Sequence record: MT446392.1
Reading direction: 5' to 3' (one strand)
Source: Escherichia virus TH15
Length of the DNA: 64,000 bases
Position 1 is the stretch's first letter, and every line of letters starts with the position of its first letter. The position numbers were made by a program, and so were the translations under genes. Below the pieces are notes generated by a model, which was not told the DNA's origin, did not search any database, and was given only the letters and a program-made list of their open reading frames with translations. This document shows positions 25,507-63,880 of the stretch, one piece after another.

Positions 25507-25514
25507 TATTTATA
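25507..25514 (-). promoter_or_regulatory. Late promoter TATAAATA for gene 34
   Basis: Minus-strand TATAAATA about 32 nt upstream of the gene 34 ATG. Confidence 0.55.
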
Positions 25515-26524: not shown

Positions 26525-26794
26525 ATGAAAGAGAAAAAAGTGAAAGTTGAATTTTGTCCTGATACCCACGGCGCTGAACTGGCCAAGCTGATTAAAGCTG
26601 CTTCCGATACTAAATTAAAAATGGAAGCATACGCGGACGAAATTAAAGACCTTAAAGATAAGGCAAAAACTGAATTAGGTGTTGACGGCAAGATGTTCAA
26701 TACGCAGCTCGGCCTGTATCATAAAGGCACTCGTGAACGTTTTGAAGATGAAAAAACCGAAGCTGTGGAGCTCTATGATGTCCTCTTTAGTTAA
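26525..26794 (+). CDS. dsbA: dsDNA-binding protein DsbA (late transcription enhancer)
   Basis: 89 aa, same size as T4 DsbA, located between rnh and gene 33. Confidence 0.6.
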   Translation: MKEKKVKVEFCPDTHGAELAKLIKAASDTKLKMEAYADEIKDLKDKAKTELGVDGKMFNTQLGLYHKGTRERFEDEKTEAVELYDVLFS

Positions 26795-27068
26795 TTTCGA
26801 TACACAGAAAACTGAATCGCCTTCCGGGGCGATTAGTAAACAGCAAAACGGGCTTGATATTGAAGCCATGGTTGAGTCAACTGAAATGTCTTATCTGGAA
26901 GCTACGACTGCCTGGTTGGAAGAACGTGGTGTTCCTGAGGGTAATTTTGCTCGATATATCCCGGCAGGAATCATTGATAAGATTATGAATGAAGCATATG
27001 ATGATAACCTGCTTCGTCCGAGTATGTCTCGTACACAGAAAACTAATACGCTGGACTTTTTGTTATGA
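26775..27068 (+). CDS. 33: Late-promoter transcription co-activator gp33
   Basis: Internal ATG with GGAG SD; C-terminus EATTAWLEERGVPEGNFARYIPAGIIDKIMNEAYDDNLLRPS...KTNTLDFLL matches remembered T4 gp33. Confidence 0.8.
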   Translation: MMSSLVNFDTQKTESPSGAISKQQNGLDIEAMVESTEMSYLEATTAWLEERGVPEGNFARYIPAGIIDKIMNEAYDDNLLRPSMSRTQKTNTLDFLL

Positions 27069-27718
27069 TTACGATTCGCATGCCTCCAAATAACAACCGA
27101 TACATAAATGGTAAATCAGTATATCAACTGTACTTATCCATCAAACAGCATTTTTCGGGTCGTTATGATATTATCAAATATAACTGGACCATGCGAATCT
27201 CCGATAGTGCTTATCAAAAACGTCGTGACAAGTATTTTTTCGAAAAGCTTAGCGATAAGTACACTCTCAAAGAATTAACGTTAATATTCATGTCAAACCT
27301 GGTCGCGAACCAGGATGCATGGATAGGTGATATAAGTGATGCCGATGCTCTTATATTTTATAGGGAATACATCGGCAGACTTAAAAGAATTAAACAAGTA
27401 TACGAAGATGATATAAAGAACATCTATTACTTCAGTAAGAAAGTCGAAGTCAAATCGCTTCAAGAGATTTTCGAGTATAATACTAAAGTGAACACAAGTT
27501 ATATTTTCAAACTTCTCCAATCAAATGTTATTTCATTTGAAACGTTTTGTTTGCTTGATTCATTTTTAGACATTATAAATAAACATGATGAACAGACTAA
27601 CGACTTGGTTTGGGAAAAGTATTCGACCAAACTAACTGCCTATAAGAAAATCTTAAATATAGATTCTCTTGAAGCTCGTAAATTGTTCATCGAGACCGTT
27701 AAAGGGTGTAAGTTTTGA
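27065..27718 (+). CDS. 59: Helicase loader gp59
   Basis: 217 aa as in T4; DKYFFEKLSDKYTLKELTLIFMSNLVANQDAWIGDISDADALIFYREYIGRLK is near-identical to remembered T4 gp59. Confidence 0.9.
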   Translation: MITIRMPPNNNRYINGKSVYQLYLSIKQHFSGRYDIIKYNWTMRISDSAYQKRRDKYFFEKLSDKYTLKELTLIFMSNLVANQDAWIGDISDADALIFYREYIGRLKRIKQVYEDDIKNIYYFSKKVEVKSLQEIFEYNTKVNTSYIFKLLQSNVISFETFCLLDSFLDIINKHDEQTNDLVWEKYSTKLTAYKKILNIDSLEARKLFIETVKGCKF

Positions 27719-28386
27719 ATGTTGTATATTGGTTTACATTTGAAACTCGTCTGAAAAATAAAACGCCTCCTTATTTTTACATTGGGTCAAAGCATAATTG
27801 TGCTTTTGAAAATGGTGTTATAATTGATTTGAAATACACGTCAAGAAGAGAATATTGGTCCTCCTGTGAGCAACCTGATTTTCTTGAAGCTATTCAACTC
27901 GAAAAGCCGACAGTCAAAATACTTGATGTCTGCGAAGATGTTTTGGACGAGGAAGAGTGGTACCACGCCCATTATAATATACCAAAATCCCCGCTATTCT
28001 TTAATAAAGCAACGGCTCGTGGTGTATTCGGTGGTGCTGGTGAACGTGCTCCAAGATATGGAATGAAAAATTCCGCACATACAAATAAATGCATTTCGGA
28101 AGCACAAAAAGATGTTCCAAAAAGTATGGAGCATAAGAAATCAATTTCTGAAGGCCTAAATCGCTTTTATGAAAAAGATGATAAAATAAATAACATCAGA
28201 GGTAATGAAGTGATAAAAACTCTTAGTGATTCTGCTAAGCGTCGTTACTCAAACCCTGATAATATTCATCCCAAAGGGTTTAAAGGTAAAAAATTACCAA
28301 GAGTTATTTGTGATTTATGTGGATATGAAACATCTATAAATCATTTAAAACGTCATCGTGATAAATGCGCTTTAAATAAAAAGTAA
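27715..28386 (+). CDS. GIY-YIG homing endonuclease (segG-like, free-standing) with NUMOD-like repeats and C-terminal zinc finger
   Basis: N-terminal VYWFTF...YFYIGSK (GIY-YIG); repeated (I/L)SEAQK-type helices; CDLCGYETSINHLKRHRDKC. Sits between 59 and 32 as T4 segG does. Only in-frame start is TTG. Confidence 0.7.
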   Translation: MNVVYWFTFETRLKNKTPPYFYIGSKHNCAFENGVIIDLKYTSRREYWSSCEQPDFLEAIQLEKPTVKILDVCEDVLDEEEWYHAHYNIPKSPLFFNKATARGVFGGAGERAPRYGMKNSAHTNKCISEAQKDVPKSMEHKKSISEGLNRFYEKDDKINNIRGNEVIKTLSDSAKRRYSNPDNIHPKGFKGKKLPRVICDLCGYETSINHLKRHRDKCALNKK

Positions 28387-45784: not shown

Positions 45785-45941
45785 AATTAGCGTTATAAAT
45801 AATAATATGGATTGGCTGCCGGACCAGTTAGTTAACCGGAGAATCCTAAACGGTGGACTACAACTGAGAGACTTGCCGAAAGGAAGTGAAATTCAGAAGA
45901 ACGTGTCCACCAAATATTCACCTCATATTGAGGCTTCTAAA

Positions 45942-56057: not shown

Positions 56058-57803
56058 TTAGTTAATTCTCGTGGCCTGTCTCATGCCAGGGGCAGGGGTT
56101 GAACTTTGAGGAGGCATATTGTATTGCGTCCTGGAAGTCTTCTGAATATTATTGACTGTGTTAATTTGGGCCTGAGCCGGTGCATCCTTGTATTTATTTT
56201 CTTTGGCCTTCATACCTTCGTCAACCTTCGCAGCTTGTTGTGCGTCCGGAGAAGTCTTAACATCTGGCGGTTTAACTTTCGGTTCGTCTTTGAACTTCTC
56301 AAGAGACTTATCGAGTTTTTCCAACAGGGCGCGCATATTCAGGTCTTTCGGAGCTCCACCTTTTGCCATAGCAGGGTCAGCTAATTGTTTTTCAATGTTA
56401 GCTCTCATTTCCAGCGCATTCTTTTTATCGGTTGCGTCTGGCTTCATTAGGTTGTCGGCAGTTTGGGTCAAACGAATAATATCAGCCTGCGCTTTGTCAC
56501 GCTTCTTGAAATAGTCCAGACGTTCTTCTTCCGGAAGGTCTCTGAAGCTTGTGTCAATACCACCCGCGCGAAGCTGGTCAGCTTGTTCCTTGGTAAGGTT
56601 ACCATATTTTTCGGCTTGATTAATTAGTTCAGGTTTATCCTTATACTTCTTATTCATCTTCTCTGCAGCTTCCATTGCTTCGGCCGAACGTTTGTCATGA
56701 TATTTTGCTATCTTGGTTTGGTCTTCATCATCCAGAGTTGCCCCTGTATTTTGCTGATAAGACATCAAAGCTGAGGCCTCCACATTATCTGCTAAATCGC
56801 CCATCCCAGGGATTTTACTTAAGATAGCCGAGATTAATTTTGAAATACCAAGCATAAGAAGTTGAGCCATATTCTTCGTTAAGTTAACCATCCCACGGAT
56901 AATAGCTTCTGCCAGCCCAAGCCAATTTCTTTCACTAAACATTGCTTCAGCATTCTTAGCCCAAGTCATTAATCCTTCGAGTAATGGCCCCCATTCTTTG
57001 AACTTATCATTAAATTCTTTCCAACCAGCTTCAAATTGCTTCATGAAATACTGGAAGTAAACTCGTATTGCATCGATGCCGAATACCAACAACAATAATC
57101 CGCCTATTAATTTAGCTGCTTCAGCTGCCGCAGTTATTGTGTATTTGAACAACATCCCTGAGATTCGGTCGGCTACAGAAACCGATGCCTTAAATCCTTT
57201 TTCGGTTATCTTCGAAAGAGTGTCAAGCTTATCGCCGAGAGACCAAGTATTAGTCTCTTTACCTTCTGCATCATTCTTTGGCTGCTCCGGTTCCGGTATG
57301 AAGTCTGCATCTGGCTTTTGTTCTTCGGGTGGTATAAGCGCTGGAACGCTCGCTGTGGGCTTATTCTCTTCAGGCTCTGGTAATGCATCCTCAACGGGTT
57401 TAAGGCTTTCAGAACCAGCCATAGGAGACGTGACGCCTATTTTACCGCTTATCATTGCGCTGAGTTTGTCGAGCTTATCCGAGAGAATATCCGTGAGGTT
57501 TTTAATCCCTTGTTGAGTCTTCTCGGTGGCTTCAGCCGTCAGTTCGACCCCAGCACTGATATCCTGGAGGACTCCATTATTGGTTTGGATATTCTCGATA
57601 ATCTGATTACCCTTATCCTCAATAGCTTCCGATACAAGTTCGGTCGCAGCCTGAGTATTTGTAAGAGTCGTATTCAGATTCGATAGTTCATCATTCTGTT
57701 CAGCAGAGAGGGCTTCCGCCCTCCTTTGTGGTGCTAATTCTTCGATAAGCTTTTTATTCGGTCCACCGCGTCTGAAGCTCGTTTGTTCGGAGTTCTTATT
57801 CAT
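56058..57803 (-). CDS. 29: Tail tape-measure / baseplate hub protein gp29
   Basis: 581 aa versus T4 590 aa; extended alpha-helical repeats with a central hydrophobic segment. Confidence 0.8.
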   Translation of the reverse strand: MNKNSEQTSFRRGGPNKKLIEELAPQRRAEALSAEQNDELSNLNTTLTNTQAATELVSEAIEDKGNQIIENIQTNNGVLQDISAGVELTAEATEKTQQGIKNLTDILSDKLDKLSAMISGKIGVTSPMAGSESLKPVEDALPEPEENKPTASVPALIPPEEQKPDADFIPEPEQPKNDAEGKETNTWSLGDKLDTLSKITEKGFKASVSVADRISGMLFKYTITAAAEAAKLIGGLLLLVFGIDAIRVYFQYFMKQFEAGWKEFNDKFKEWGPLLEGLMTWAKNAEAMFSERNWLGLAEAIIRGMVNLTKNMAQLLMLGISKLISAILSKIPGMGDLADNVEASALMSYQQNTGATLDDEDQTKIAKYHDKRSAEAMEAAEKMNKKYKDKPELINQAEKYGNLTKEQADQLRAGGIDTSFRDLPEEERLDYFKKRDKAQADIIRLTQTADNLMKPDATDKKNALEMRANIEKQLADPAMAKGGAPKDLNMRALLEKLDKSLEKFKDEPKVKPPDVKTSPDAQQAAKVDEGMKAKENKYKDAPAQAQINTVNNIQKTSRTQYNMPPQSSTPAPGMRQATRIN

Positions 57804-58356
57804 TTAGGAGTTCCATTATTTTCAGTAACCCCTTAACAGGACCATTCGGGCCCGGGATTGCTAATGTGCTTGTGATATCGTCTGCCCACTTAGCAACAAA
57901 AGCAGGCATATCCAGAAAGTCTGGAACATCTTCCCCGAGATAAAGAGTCTCCAGAAGATTGTCAACTGGTCCGAATTCTTCATACGGTTTATTCGAGCGG
58001 AATTTAAATGTCTTTCCTTGATAAGAGAATTCAAGACGCTGGCAGATATAAACATCATCCAGCTTATATGTAAATCCATTAATCTCGCGTTTGTCTTTTA
58101 GCTTACCATTGAATTCCAGAAGATGTAAGGATACAAAGTCGGATTCGGCTGCTGTAAGATTAGGGAATATCGATTGCATAACCTTTCTTAATGCAGCGTA
58201 AGGGTTGGCCTCGTTTTTAATCAGATTGTGATGCTTGAGTCCAAGCTTAGGAACGTGAATCTCTTTATCACCCAGCTGTATTTTCTTCGTCGGCAGAATC
58301 AGTTTTAAGTTCATTTTTAACCTTCGGTGGTTCTTCAACTTCGATAGGCTTACCAT
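57796..58356 (-). CDS. 28: Baseplate hub distal subunit gp28
   Basis: Synteny between 27 and 29; likely true start at internal Met (about 58314), giving about 172 aa versus T4 177 aa. Confidence 0.7.
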
Positions 58357-59437
58357 TGGTAAACATATAGAGGTTTGTAATTGATGTATTGTTACTCACT
58401 TCATGAATAACTTCGTCTACGTAAAAATCATATTTGAATTGGTTCTTAGGGTCAAAGAAATTTATCTTATCACCCGGGGTTAATTCAAAGTTCCCGTACG
58501 TTTTGCAATGTGCGTAACCGTCATACTGAGACATGGTTATTAATCGTTGTGCTTCCTCGAAACCATTTCGGTACGTGTAATCCGAATAGCCTCCGGAACG
58601 AGATACCAGAATACTGTTTTGACCTTCCCCAAAAGTTATTCTGGTTGCATTCTTGTCAAGGAATGAATGTGCATACACGGTTGCGTTTTCGTATGGTTTT
58701 CTTGTGTGTTGGTTTGCCTTTGTTAACCATTCAAAATCGAAGGCTAACGGAGCATCGAGGTTTTGCACGAATTGGCCAATCAATCGAGGTTCACCCACCA
58801 CAAAATTAATTGGCTCTTGGGCGGTTAACCATTCATAATCCTGGATACTTATGCCATCGATATCTTCCCATACAAAAACAAATTTATCGGTTTCTACGGC
58901 CAGGCCAACTTCCCTTATGAATTCCATATATTGGTTCATCGAATCACACCATGGAACATTAGGAGCATAAACGTTTATGCCGTTTATCGGAGGAGCAAGT
59001 AATGGTCGGTCCTGATAAATTACCCCGGTCATTTCGACTAATGTTTCTTGTACACTCGGGTAAAACATACGACTAAATTTCAGGTCTTCAATTTCGTGAA
59101 TCGGCGCCAGTTGAATTGTAATTATGTTATCACCCTTTGAATCCACAGAAACCGCAAAGTGCTTGCTTCCGTATATCCTGGATTGGGTTCGGTCAGAGTT
59201 GGCATTCTTAACAGAAATCTGAATAATTTGTTCACCATTCATTTTTGTATGTAAATTCTTTGTGTCGTAGAATTGCAACAGCCCTTCGTTTCTTCCATAA
59301 AGGGAATCACGCATGGTTAACGTTGTAAATGTTGCAGCCAGTTCTACAAAACGGTGTTCAAGCCAGGCATCATAATCTTCATAAAGGCGTATGCTGATAT
59401 TAGGAAAGCCTTCGCGCTGCATAGATTTAGCTGTCAT
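58268..59437 (-). CDS. 27: Baseplate hub protein gp27
   Basis: 389 aa versus T4 391 aa; synteny. Confidence 0.85.
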
Positions 59438-60186
59438 TTCTTCAAGTCCTTCTCAACTAACGATAAAGCGATACCTCGCTCGATAGGAATCATGTGCATG
59501 ATGCTATCCAGTGAATATTGATTCTTTACCAGCAAGTGGTTAATTTGATAAAATACAAAGACTTCATCCGGGTTAAGGATAAGCTTAAAGACATCAATCA
59601 AGTCTGTATATTCGGTTTTGTGCTTTTCGCAACAACCATATGTAAATGGAAGATAAATCGAGTGCATTTTCTTAAGGAGCTCTTCGAGACTCTCTATATC
59701 AATTGCATCGATAACTTGCATCTTCGTTTCTTCAGGAAGGTCTTCCCAATTGTACTTTTGTTCTGAGTCTTCGACAGTCTGGATGGTGTTTAGAACAAGC
59801 TCCGACTTATCTTTATATTCCACTTCAGGGAACTTAAATTGTATTTTTATCCCTGCGGTTTCCATCGTTGGATTTATCAATGGACCTTGACTCATGTTAA
59901 ACAAAGTCTGCTTTGTCTTTTTACATTTTTGACATTCGAACGCTACCGGGACTTTTGTCTTGCCGATAGAGGAAGTGAATACCTTCAGGAATATGTAAGG
60001 TCTCCATGCTTTCGGATACTCTCCAAAATAATCTTCTAACAGTTCGTCTAATAATTGTTTTTGTTCTTCGACGGGTTTGTTGTTCATGTCGTTTCGCACA
60101 AGCAGTAAATCACGGTAATCAGCGACTGTAAACGGTTTGAAACGATGAACTCCGTCTGGCATTTCACATCTTACGATATTGGCCAT
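59434..60186 (-). CDS. 51: Baseplate hub assembly catalyst gp51
   Basis: 250 aa versus T4 249 aa; first gene of the minus-strand hub operon, with a late promoter immediately upstream. Confidence 0.8.
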
Positions 60187-60210
60187 AGAATCCCCTTTTA
60201 TCTTTATTGA

Positions 60211-60222
60211 TATTTATAAATA
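60211..60222. promoter_or_regulatory. Overlapping divergent late promoters (TATTTATAAATA) for gene 51 (minus) and gene 26 (plus)
   Basis: The 12-mer reads TATAAATA on both strands, offset by 4 nt. Confidence 0.6.
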
Positions 60223-60239
60223 CAGTAAAGGAGCAAATT

Positions 60240-60863
60240 ATGACTTATGAATTTATTGTCCAAATTAAAAATAAAACTATAAATTGTAGGGCTTTTACCT
60301 TGCGCGAATATAAAGATTTGCTTCAGGCAAAATTAGAAAAGCGTATGGAACCTGCAATAATTGAACTGCTTAATAAATGCACTGATGCTAAAGGGTTAAA
60401 CAAACAGGAAGCCGAGCTGCTTCTTATTAATCTCTGGGCAAATAGTCTCGGAGCTGTCAACGTCGAGCATACATGGGTATGTGAGTGTGGAAAGGAACAA
60501 GATATTCCGGTAACGATTAGCCGTGCGAGCATCGTGGACGAGTCTGAAGTTATTCGTGATTTTGGGTCGTTTAAAATTAAATTCCGTTATCCTGGACTGT
60601 TTGAAGACGGTGATAAAGGAAAAATGATTGCTTGTTGCATTGAATATATTATCACGGAAGGTGGCGAGCGCATCGTGGTTGATGACTTAAATGAAGCCGA
60701 AATCGAGGACCTGTACAACGCAATTACCCTCGATGATATCAATGCACTAACGGAAGAACTTCTCAAGCCACAGGTCCAAATGGCTATTCCTATCTCTTGT
60801 GAGTGTGGAGCGCATTCTGTCCATGTAATTAAGGGGCTTAAAGAATTCTTTAAGTTTATGTAA
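60240..60863 (+). CDS. 26: Baseplate hub subunit gp26
   Basis: 207 aa versus T4 208 aa; ATG with AGGAG SD downstream of a late promoter; track start 60207 is TTG upstream of the promoter. Confidence 0.8.
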   Translation: MTYEFIVQIKNKTINCRAFTLREYKDLLQAKLEKRMEPAIIELLNKCTDAKGLNKQEAELLLINLWANSLGAVNVEHTWVCECGKEQDIPVTISRASIVDESEVIRDFGSFKIKFRYPGLFEDGDKGKMIACCIEYIITEGGERIVVDDLNEAEIEDLYNAITLDDINALTEELLKPQVQMAIPISCECGAHSVHVIKGLKEFFKFM

Positions 60864-61253
60864 ATGAATATAAACAAAATGTATAGCGATGTGTCTCCTG
60901 ACTTGTCAATGAGTTGGGATAAAGACGTTGCTAAAGTAACTGGTGCAAGGTCTGTTAAGAACAGTCTTCTGGGAATAATCACCACAAGAAAAGGGTCAAG
61001 GCCTTTTATGCCTGAATTTGGATGTGATATAAGTAATCAGCTTTTTGAGAATATCACTCCATTAATCACAGATACCATTAAACGCAACATCGTCTCCGCT
61101 GTGCGGAACTTCGAACCAAGGATAAGCAATTTGCAGGTTGCAGTTGTCCCTATGTATGATGATAACTCCATCATCGTAACGGTTCAGTTCAGCATTGTTG
61201 ATGACCCTGACACCCTCGAACAAATCAGGATTCAGTTAAGTCAAAACGGTTAA
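60864..61253 (+). CDS. 25: Baseplate wedge protein gp25 (GPW/gp25 lysozyme-like fold)
   Basis: 129 aa versus T4 132 aa; conserved ITTRKGSRPFMPEFGCDI segment; between 26 and uvsY. Confidence 0.85.
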   Translation: MNINKMYSDVSPDLSMSWDKDVAKVTGARSVKNSLLGIITTRKGSRPFMPEFGCDISNQLFENITPLITDTIKRNIVSAVRNFEPRISNLQVAVVPMYDDNSIIVTVQFSIVDDPDTLEQIRIQLSQNG

Positions 61254-62327: not shown

Positions 62328-63826
62328 TATATTTCCACCTGTTTAATGATATAATTGAATTTTTCGTCTGCATACCGCTGAATACGTTCTAATGCATGTT
62401 TCAGTGCAAAGTTCAAGTGAACATATTTCTTTTTAGCGTTTGCTGTTTTAGGTTTGACCCCCATGTCGTCCACGATGTCCCACACGTTTGCGGTCGATTT
62501 GGATTCATGTTTTCGAAGTACACGACCAATTGTCTGGAGTACAATTACCTTTGACTTGACCGGGTGAGCGAAAATAATATGATGGAGGTTTTTAACGGAA
62601 ATCCCCGTCGAGAATACACCATATGAAGCTACAACGATAATTCCCTTTCCATTCTCTGCCATGACCTTTAATGCGTTACGTGTTTCTGTATCAACTTCCC
62701 CGGAAACATAATACACTTTCTCATGACCTGCTTCCTTAAGCATTTCAAACATCGATTTACCGTGCTCGATATTCTTAAACATCAAAAAGACGTTTTCATC
62801 TTTTTTAGCAAGCTTGAGCGCAAGGTTTGTTACCCATTTATTTCGGCGTGTAGCTTTTGTAATTACCTTGATTTCATCTTGGTAAGATTTGCCTTTCATT
62901 TTAACGGTGAATTCATCAGGGTAACGAAGGAAAATACTATTTATCTTAAGGTCAGTAACTTGGCCTTCATCCATTAATTGGGATGTGGATACTGGTTTAA
63001 AGATATCACCAAACAGACCCATATATTGCATAAGGTTTGCTTTGCCGTCACGGAGAGAACCAGAGAGACCAAATTTAAACATACAATTAGTCAGGCCTTC
63101 GATAACAGTCGAAATGGATTTACCAGTAGCCATATGGCATTCATCATTCATAAACTGACCGAACTGTGAAAACCATTCTTTAGGTTGTTTTACTGCCGTC
63201 TGATAAGTAGACACATAAATCATTGCATCCGAATCACGTTTAGTTCCGGAACGGATACCGAGACAAGCTTCTCGAGGGAACAATCTATAATCAACAAAGT
63301 CATTAATCATCTGGTCAACGAGCGCAGTTGTAGGTACAAGGATAAGAACCTTGCCTTCATAGTTCTCAAGATAATATCGCGCCAGAAGCGCCTGGATGAG
63401 GCTTTTACCTGCAGACGTAGGTAAGTTCAATATTTTTCTTCTGTTGACCAGACCGTCGTATACGGCGTCTGTTTGGTACCAATGGGGAGTAATCTTGGTA
63501 TGGCCTGAATAGATTTCTTTTGACTCGACCCATTTATCAAAATCCGCACGAGAGATTTCCTCTTTCTCGGTGATTTGAGGGTCAATCCAAAATGAATAAC
63601 CAAACTGGTCAGCGAATTTTTTAATCTGGTTAACTAAGCCGTACGGTAATTTACGGTTATAATCCAGGAGACGGATACGTCCGTCCCAAACTCCCGCTTT
63701 GAATTTAGGGTTAAACCGATAGTTTTCGGCTTCAAAACTGAAATAGTCACGGAGTTCATAGAAGATACTATCTTCACATTCAACATGTACATGACTAAAA
63801 TTTAAAAAGTTGATTTTGATATCCAT
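62327..63826 (-). CDS. uvsW: DNA/RNA helicase UvsW (SF2)
   Basis: About 499 aa versus T4 about 503 aa; helicase motifs (Walker A LPTSAGKS, DEAH-type MNDECH); start chosen at the Met downstream of a minus-strand late promoter. Confidence 0.9.
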   Translation of the reverse strand: MDIKINFLNFSHVHVECEDSIFYELRDYFSFEAENYRFNPKFKAGVWDGRIRLLDYNRKLPYGLVNQIKKFADQFGYSFWIDPQITEKEEISRADFDKWVESKEIYSGHTKITPHWYQTDAVYDGLVNRRKILNLPTSAGKSLIQALLARYYLENYEGKVLILVPTTALVDQMINDFVDYRLFPREACLGIRSGTKRDSDAMIYVSTYQTAVKQPKEWFSQFGQFMNDECHMATGKSISTVIEGLTNCMFKFGLSGSLRDGKANLMQYMGLFGDIFKPVSTSQLMDEGQVTDLKINSIFLRYPDEFTVKMKGKSYQDEIKVITKATRRNKWVTNLALKLAKKDENVFLMFKNIEHGKSMFEMLKEAGHEKVYYVSGEVDTETRNALKVMAENGKGIIVVASYGVFSTGISVKNLHHIIFAHPVKSKVIVLQTIGRVLRKHESKSTANVWDIVDDMGVKPKTANAKKKYVHLNFALKHALERIQRYADEKFNYIIKQVEI

Positions 63827-63854: not shown

Positions 63855-63862
63855 TATTTATA
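63855..63862 (-). promoter_or_regulatory. Late promoter TATAAATA for uvsW
   Basis: Minus-strand TATAAATA about 29 nt upstream of the uvsW ATG. Confidence 0.5.
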
Positions 63863-63880
63863 CAATAACCGAGGTTCATT

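Follow-up and report, generated by a model that had tools for sequence, protein, structure and literature searches.

Divergent transcription from overlapping late promoters has reportedly been mapped in the baseplate gene cluster of bacteriophage T4 by Scarlato et al. (1989, Virology 171:475), in a paper said to be entitled 'Bacteriophage T4 late gene expression: overlapping promoters direct divergent transcription of the base plate gene cluster'. In the T4 GenBank record M77695.1, the title of which reads 'Bacteriophage T4 base plate protein (25 and 26) and DNA repair protein (uvsY) gene', gene 51 is assigned a TATA_box at 768-774 and gene 26 another at 772-779, the two forming an overlapping pair. 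A title that matches this record is carried by the paper of Gruidl et al. (1991, Virology 184:359), and it is through the titles that we connect the record with the paper. The same promoter pair, composed of 8-bp boxes with an offset of 4 nt, has been annotated independently in Lutter, SA35RD and Pm5461; the SA35RD annotation cites the T4 late-promoter consensus and the Pm5461 pair was found with MEME. A literature search for genome-wide mapping of transcription start sites in T4 returned nothing relevant.

The T4 late-promoter consensus occupies positions -13 to -6 relative to the start site, and the late promoters predicted in T4-like genomes are found only 5' of the orthologues of late genes (Nolan et al. 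2006, PMC1524935). Activation of these promoters is brought about by the gp45 clamp, which acts at the upstream end of the polymerase, and the orientation of the clamp, set by the strand that carries the nick or primer end, decides which promoter polarity is activated (Geiduschek review, PMC2988020). The same review points out that activity in vivo has not been shown for all 50 of the T4 late sites that it lists, and that primer extension cannot separate initiation from processing. A second class of described elements, the bidirectional promoters of Escherichia coli, has been characterised by Warman, Grainger and colleagues, who found that binding in one orientation prevents binding in the other and that the divergent start sites of bacterial bidirectional promoters are commonly spaced by 10, 18 or 23 bp (PMC12825309).

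We describe here a 12-mer, TATTTATAAATA, that lies between genes 51 and 26 of Escherichia virus TH15, in a stretch of 64,000 nucleotides (MT446392.1) which we call the window. The 12-mer very probably represents two overlapping, back-to-back late promoters of the T4 type, driving genes 51-27-28 in one direction and genes 26-25 in the other. Judged by sequence and setting, it is the orthologue, in the VR7 group of phages, of the long-annotated P51/P26 pair of T4, and as such it is an already known and ordinary element. The features of the locus are collected in Table 1.

Table 1. Features of the 51/26 locus, with positions given in the numbering of the window
Feature	Position	Strand	Basis or remark
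Palindromic 12-mer TATTTATAAATA, with both late-promoter boxes inside	60211..60222	none	Pattern search, conservation
P26 box TATAAATA, gene 26	60215..60222	+	Private bases 60219-60222; homologous 8-mer is the gene 26 TATA_box in T4 M77695.1
P51 box TATAAATA, gene 51	60211..60218	-	Private bases 60211-60214; homologous site is the gene 51 TATA_box in T4 M77695.1
Gene 51, baseplate hub assembly protein, 250 aa; heads the minus-strand hub operon	59434..60186	-	VR7 record, PHROG scan
Genes 27 and 28, each overlapping end to start with gene 51 or with each other; gene 29 further down	57796..59437	-	VR7 record
Gene 26, baseplate hub subunit or chaperone, 207 aa; paralog of gene 51	60240..60863	+	VR7 record, PHROG scan
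Gene 25, baseplate wedge subunit	60864..61253	+	VR7 record
Shine-Dalgarno AAGGAG of gene 26, 6 nt before the ATG at 60240	60228..60233	+	Sequence read; a Shine-Dalgarno-like purine run stands there in relatives
Shine-Dalgarno-like AAGGGG of gene 51	60192..60198	-	Sequence read; relatives have CTCC/CCTC here on the plus strand
Predicted start of the gene 26 late transcript, at AAGGAG; leader about 12 nt	60228 (about +/-2 nt)	+	Inferred from the -13 to -6 rule, PMC1524935
Predicted start of the gene 51 late transcript; leader about 19 nt	60205 (about +/-2 nt)	-	Inferred from the -13 to -6 rule, PMC1524935

Positions 59900-60560 of the window are 99.8% identical to Escherichia phage vB_EcoM_VR7, a T4-like phage (Straboviridae, Tevenvirinae, Gaprivervirus), and the order of the genes is 28-27-51 <> 26-25-uvsY, the two groups diverging from the 51/26 spacer. 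Gene 25 begins one base past the stop codon of gene 26 and is therefore probably co-transcribed with it. Genes 51 and 26 are placed head to head around the palindrome, and their products are paralogs that share 24% identity over 181 aa (E = 3e-8) and both match phrog_150. Gene 26 measures 624 nt in the window and 630 nt in the VR7 record, HM563683.1, which marks the window as a very close relative of VR7 and distinct from the deposited sequence. The VR7 record has no promoter features in the stretches that we examined, so that the marking of P51 and P26 represents a small gain for annotation.

The 12-mer is a perfect palindrome, being its own reverse complement, and is housed in the 53-nt spacer that separates the start codon of gene 51 (60186, minus strand) from the ATG of gene 26 (60240, plus strand). 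A pattern search places one exact copy of TATAAATA on each strand within it, the two copies being offset by 4 nt and having in common the self-complementary TATA at 60215-60218. Since the consensus opens with this self-complementary TATA, two perfect boxes can share four bases, and the outcome is a palindrome of 12 bp in which each box retains four private bases. From the end of the P26 box to the ATG of gene 26 there are 17 nt, and from the end of the P51 box to the start codon of gene 51 there are 24 nt. A first-pass annotation of this DNA had reported the motif on both strands with the 4-nt offset, had assigned gene 51 (minus strand) and gene 26 (plus strand) to the baseplate hub, and had proposed that the motif encodes overlapping divergent late promoters. 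The pattern search confirms the arrangement of the motif, the gene assignments agree with the VR7 record and with the PHROG scans, and the proposed promoters are supported both by the match to the T4 consensus and by a T4 12-mer, identical to this one, that bears the annotated overlapping TATA boxes.

This T4 12-mer lies in the orthologous 51/26 spacer, within the context ttattcTATTTATAAATAtgataaat. The two loci thus agree in the 12-mer itself, in its place between orthologous genes, in the offset of the boxes and in the gene order 27-51 <> 26-25-uvsY, and their predicted leaders are similarly short. They differ in the length of the spacer, which is 50 nt in T4 as against 53 nt here, and in the spacer sequence that flanks the 12-mer.

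The window as a whole offers a view of how TATAAATA is used in this phage. Ten copies are present where 4.4 are expected, a total of ten being reached in 2 of 100 shuffles, and eight of the ten end 17-39 nt before a start codon. The genes behind these eight boxes are those for the holin, the tail-fibre hinge, a proximal tail fibre like that of gene 34, alt, uvsW, 51, 26 and an ORF of 50 aa. The T4 counterparts of the holin, the tail-fibre genes, alt, uvsW, 51 and 26 are late genes. Genes for the corresponding machinery are likewise observed: the window contains a gp33-like ORF at 26679-27068 (phrog_254, late promoter transcriptional regulator, E = 3.4e-28), and the VR7 record, with its 99.8% identity to the window across the stretch compared, has annotated genes for gp55, the gp45 clamp and the gp44/62 clamp loader. 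The locus therefore resembles a generic T4-type late promoter in its perfect consensus, here on both strands, in its position just 5' of late-gene orthologues and in the presence of the machinery genes; unlike a generic late promoter, it consists of two back-to-back promoters that share four bases, whereas the other boxes of the window are single.

Several of these other boxes merit a brief description. That at 63855-63862 on the minus strand leaves 28 nt between its end and the ATG at 63826 of uvsW, a helicase gene, which therefore probably has a late promoter of its own; the TTG start at 63865 in the ORF list, which overlaps this box, is probably spurious. The copy at 27574-27581 (plus strand) lies inside a gene 59-like ORF (27065-27718); about 130 nt further on there begins a homing-endonuclease-like ORF (27715-28386), situated between genes 59 and 32. 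The copy at 45794-45801 (plus strand) has no convincing ribosome-binding site or gene start within the 80 nt downstream of it, and may be either a chance match or the driver of a non-coding or antisense RNA. A dsbA-like ORF (phrog_639, transcriptional regulator) runs into the beginning of the gp33-like ORF, the pair spanning 26525-27068 on the plus strand; a conserved overlap of dsbA and gene 33 is mentioned in a review of T4 late transcription. We also searched around the 51/26 site for promoters of the sigma-70 type and for terminators and rejected both, no signal being seen; the 14 promoter-like sites are not above the background of 18.8 expected. One of the sigma-70-like sites, at 60163-60191 (plus strand), points towards gene 26 and is indistinguishable from chance.

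The conservation of the 12-mer was surveyed in two collections of relatives. The first is a panel of named phages, in which the region upstream of gene 51 was examined and which, together with the window and T4, covers 13 genera with the divergent 51/26 layout. Exact TATTTATAAATA is present in the 51/26 spacer of 11 of these 13 genera, namely Gaprivervirus, Tequatrovirus, Dhakavirus, Kanagawavirus, Mosigvirus, Jiaodavirus, Moonvirus, Marfavirus, Hadassahvirus, Bragavirus and Muldoonvirus, of which Hadassahvirus is represented by an Acinetobacter phage. The second collection is IMG/VR, which is less selective than the phage panel; a scan with an alignment of 15 gp51 sequences gave 64 loci with 45 distinct upstream sequences, and it supersedes a scan with a single gp51 protein that gave only 4 loci. 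The exact 12-mer stands in 32 of the 38 distinct IMG/VR spacers with the divergent layout, at gp51 identities that range from 100% down to 43%.

Around the 12-mer this constancy is quickly lost. When 24 distinct spacers with the exact 12-mer were anchored on it, the four bases to either side carried only 0.14-0.47 bits each and, beyond these immediate flanks, only the ribosome-binding sites stood out. The 12-mer is separated by 15-24 nt from the start codon of gene 51 and by 16-21 nt from that of gene 26, with one case of 30 nt, and these short distances can accommodate little beyond a start site and a Shine-Dalgarno sequence. The survey is perhaps of modest value in its own right, as it shows the exact palindrome to be kept in most of the sampled Straboviridae genera with the divergent layout, including one genus of Acinetobacter phages, and brings out the small number of departures from it.

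The exact 12-mer is missing from L055, L064, L065, L066, L069 and L071 among the IMG/VR sequences and from L017, L019 and L023, and the departures are of four types. A perfect minus-strand box is retained in four of the six variant IMG/VR spacers, two of which (L055 and L064) have in addition a perfect plus-strand box elsewhere in the spacer. In L064 there is one perfect box per strand, the two being separated and crossed; in L055 the last A of the 12-mer is replaced by G. Phages of the RB49/JSE type have TATTTATAAAATA, in which a single additional A interrupts the plus-strand box and leaves the minus-strand box whole, and Aeromonas phages of the 44RR/25 type have a shorter palindrome, TATTTAAATA. 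As Krischvirus and the Aeromonas-phage lineages manage without a perfect pair, the exact 12-mer is not indispensable. The RB43-like phages (Lw1, Miro and seven IMG/VR sequences within L076-L087) carry genes 54-51-26-25 in tandem, and before gene 51 in these phages there is no late box, a terminator hairpin being found there instead. Taken with the small variants seen elsewhere, the absence of the box from the tandem phages indicates that the paired boxes accompany the divergent gene layout.

These variants bear on the possibility that only one of the two boxes works as a promoter and that the other is a passive by-product of it, with its operon fed by read-through or by another promoter. The interrupted plus-strand box of the RB49/JSE type, next to an intact minus-strand box, is what such a reading would lead one to expect, and in this same lineage the depositors of the RB49 record (AJ489481.1; L023 1528-1554) marked -35 and -10 signals that lie in the 5' portion of gene 51 and are directed towards gene 26. 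In T4, M77695.1 gives gene 26 two more TATA boxes, the downstream near-consensus GATAAATA and TATGAATA, which are absent here, and the title of Gruidl et al. (1991) places genes 25 and 26 in overlapping transcription units, from which it follows that gene 26 may have additional promoters. Against this, the private bases of both boxes (60211-60214 and 60219-60222) do not vary in any of the spacers with the pair, 32 of the 38 distinct ones, and this is not how a by-product would behave. The window holds no further exact box close to either operon, the next TATAAATA on the minus strand beyond genes 51, 27 and 28 being at 25507, and L055, in which the plus-strand box of the 12-mer is damaged by its last base, possesses a second perfect plus-strand box 10 nt upstream. 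On balance we consider it very unlikely that just one box is active.

The perfect two-fold symmetry of the 12-mer could also be taken to mean that it is conserved not as a promoter pair but as the site of a dimeric DNA-binding protein, for example a late regulator similar to DsbA, or as a cruciform. T4 DsbA does bind A/T-rich sites that overlap two late promoters (Geiduschek review), and a dsbA-like gene lies within the window. However, the binding of DsbA was reported to be weak, and no effect on late transcription was seen in vitro (PMC2988020), the symmetry ends exactly at the edges of the 8-mers, beyond which the flanks are asymmetric, and the same 8-mer precedes other late genes in a non-palindromic form. 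We rejected a hairpin or cruciform, the single strand of the spacer folding at -3 kcal/mol with z = -0.48, which is no better than shuffled sequences. A role in protein binding would, moreover, add to a promoter role and not replace it, and conservation for binding or extrusion instead of for transcription is accordingly an extremely improbable account of the site.

The 12-mer is the sole match in the 64-kb window when one mismatch is allowed, and the number of exact copies predicted by a first-order Markov model fitted to the window is 0.017 per 64 kb, or about 1e-5 per spacer of similar size. Statistics internal to the window are not persuasive when one mismatch is allowed; the strongest case against chance is the conservation of the element, and the expectation for the exact match also carries weight. 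That the 12-mer is a functionless A/T-rich palindrome has next to no probability, for in spite of the A/T-richness of the spacer (75% A+T) and of the 47 in 100 window shuffles that hold a match somewhere with one mismatch, chance is effectively refuted by the finding that genera with no more than 40-70% identity between their gp51 proteins keep the 12-mer unaltered in the orthologous position, next to bases that vary.

We therefore return to the two overlapping late promoters and to the manner in which they could operate. Late in infection, the host RNA polymerase, equipped with the sigma-like gp55 and the co-activator gp33 and tethered to the gp45 sliding clamp, would recognise TATAAATA. Initiation on the plus strand would yield a 26-25 transcript from near 60228 and initiation on the minus strand a 51-27-28 transcript from near 60205; the requirement for gp55, gp33 and gp45, like the distance from box to start, is carried over from the work on T4, and it is this distance that gives the predicted starts. 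So calculated, from the positions -13 to -6, the starts of P51 and P26 would face in opposite directions at a separation of 23 bp. The open complexes for the two directions would occupy almost identical stretches of DNA, and hence only one should form at a time, so that the site would fire alternately in the two directions. Because the orientation of the clamp sets the polarity of activation, these two directions would draw on oppositely oriented clamps.

The first-pass annotation had further suggested that a single site couples both hub operons. That claim holds in part: the site is shared, but the two promoter complexes would overlap almost completely, so that each firing would serve one direction. 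It is conceivable, though rather unlikely, that the arrangement amounts to a switch of direction, in which occlusion and clamp polarity act together, the ratio of 51-27-28 to 26-25 is set by the strand that bears nicks or primer ends nearby, and so by the local direction of replication or recombination, and the 12-mer is kept in order to balance the paralogs 51 and 26.

As a discovery the 12-mer has little weight, given that the T4 pair is contained in a GenBank record whose title matches a paper of 1991, and in several modern phage genomes. It offers a clean natural case of a perfectly symmetric bidirectional promoter whose reader would be a minimal sigma factor, and competition between RNA polymerases and the effects of clamp polarity could be studied on it.

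The closest functional analogue of the 12-mer is to be found in the sigma-70 bidirectional promoters of bacteria. In common with that class (PMC12825309), a single short symmetric sequence contains the overlapping melting elements of both strands, and the two orientations would exclude each other. The separation of the starts, calculated at 23 bp, would equal one of the spacings common in the class. The bacterial promoters depend on sigma-70, often with modulation by -35 elements and site-specific regulators, and are only approximately symmetric; the 12-mer, by contrast, would be read by gp55 with no -35 element, its activation would come from a mobile clamp that determines the direction by its orientation, and its symmetry is perfect. 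Being, by homology with T4, a gp55-read element, it appears as a counterpart of the sigma-70 bidirectional promoters and not as a strict member of their class.
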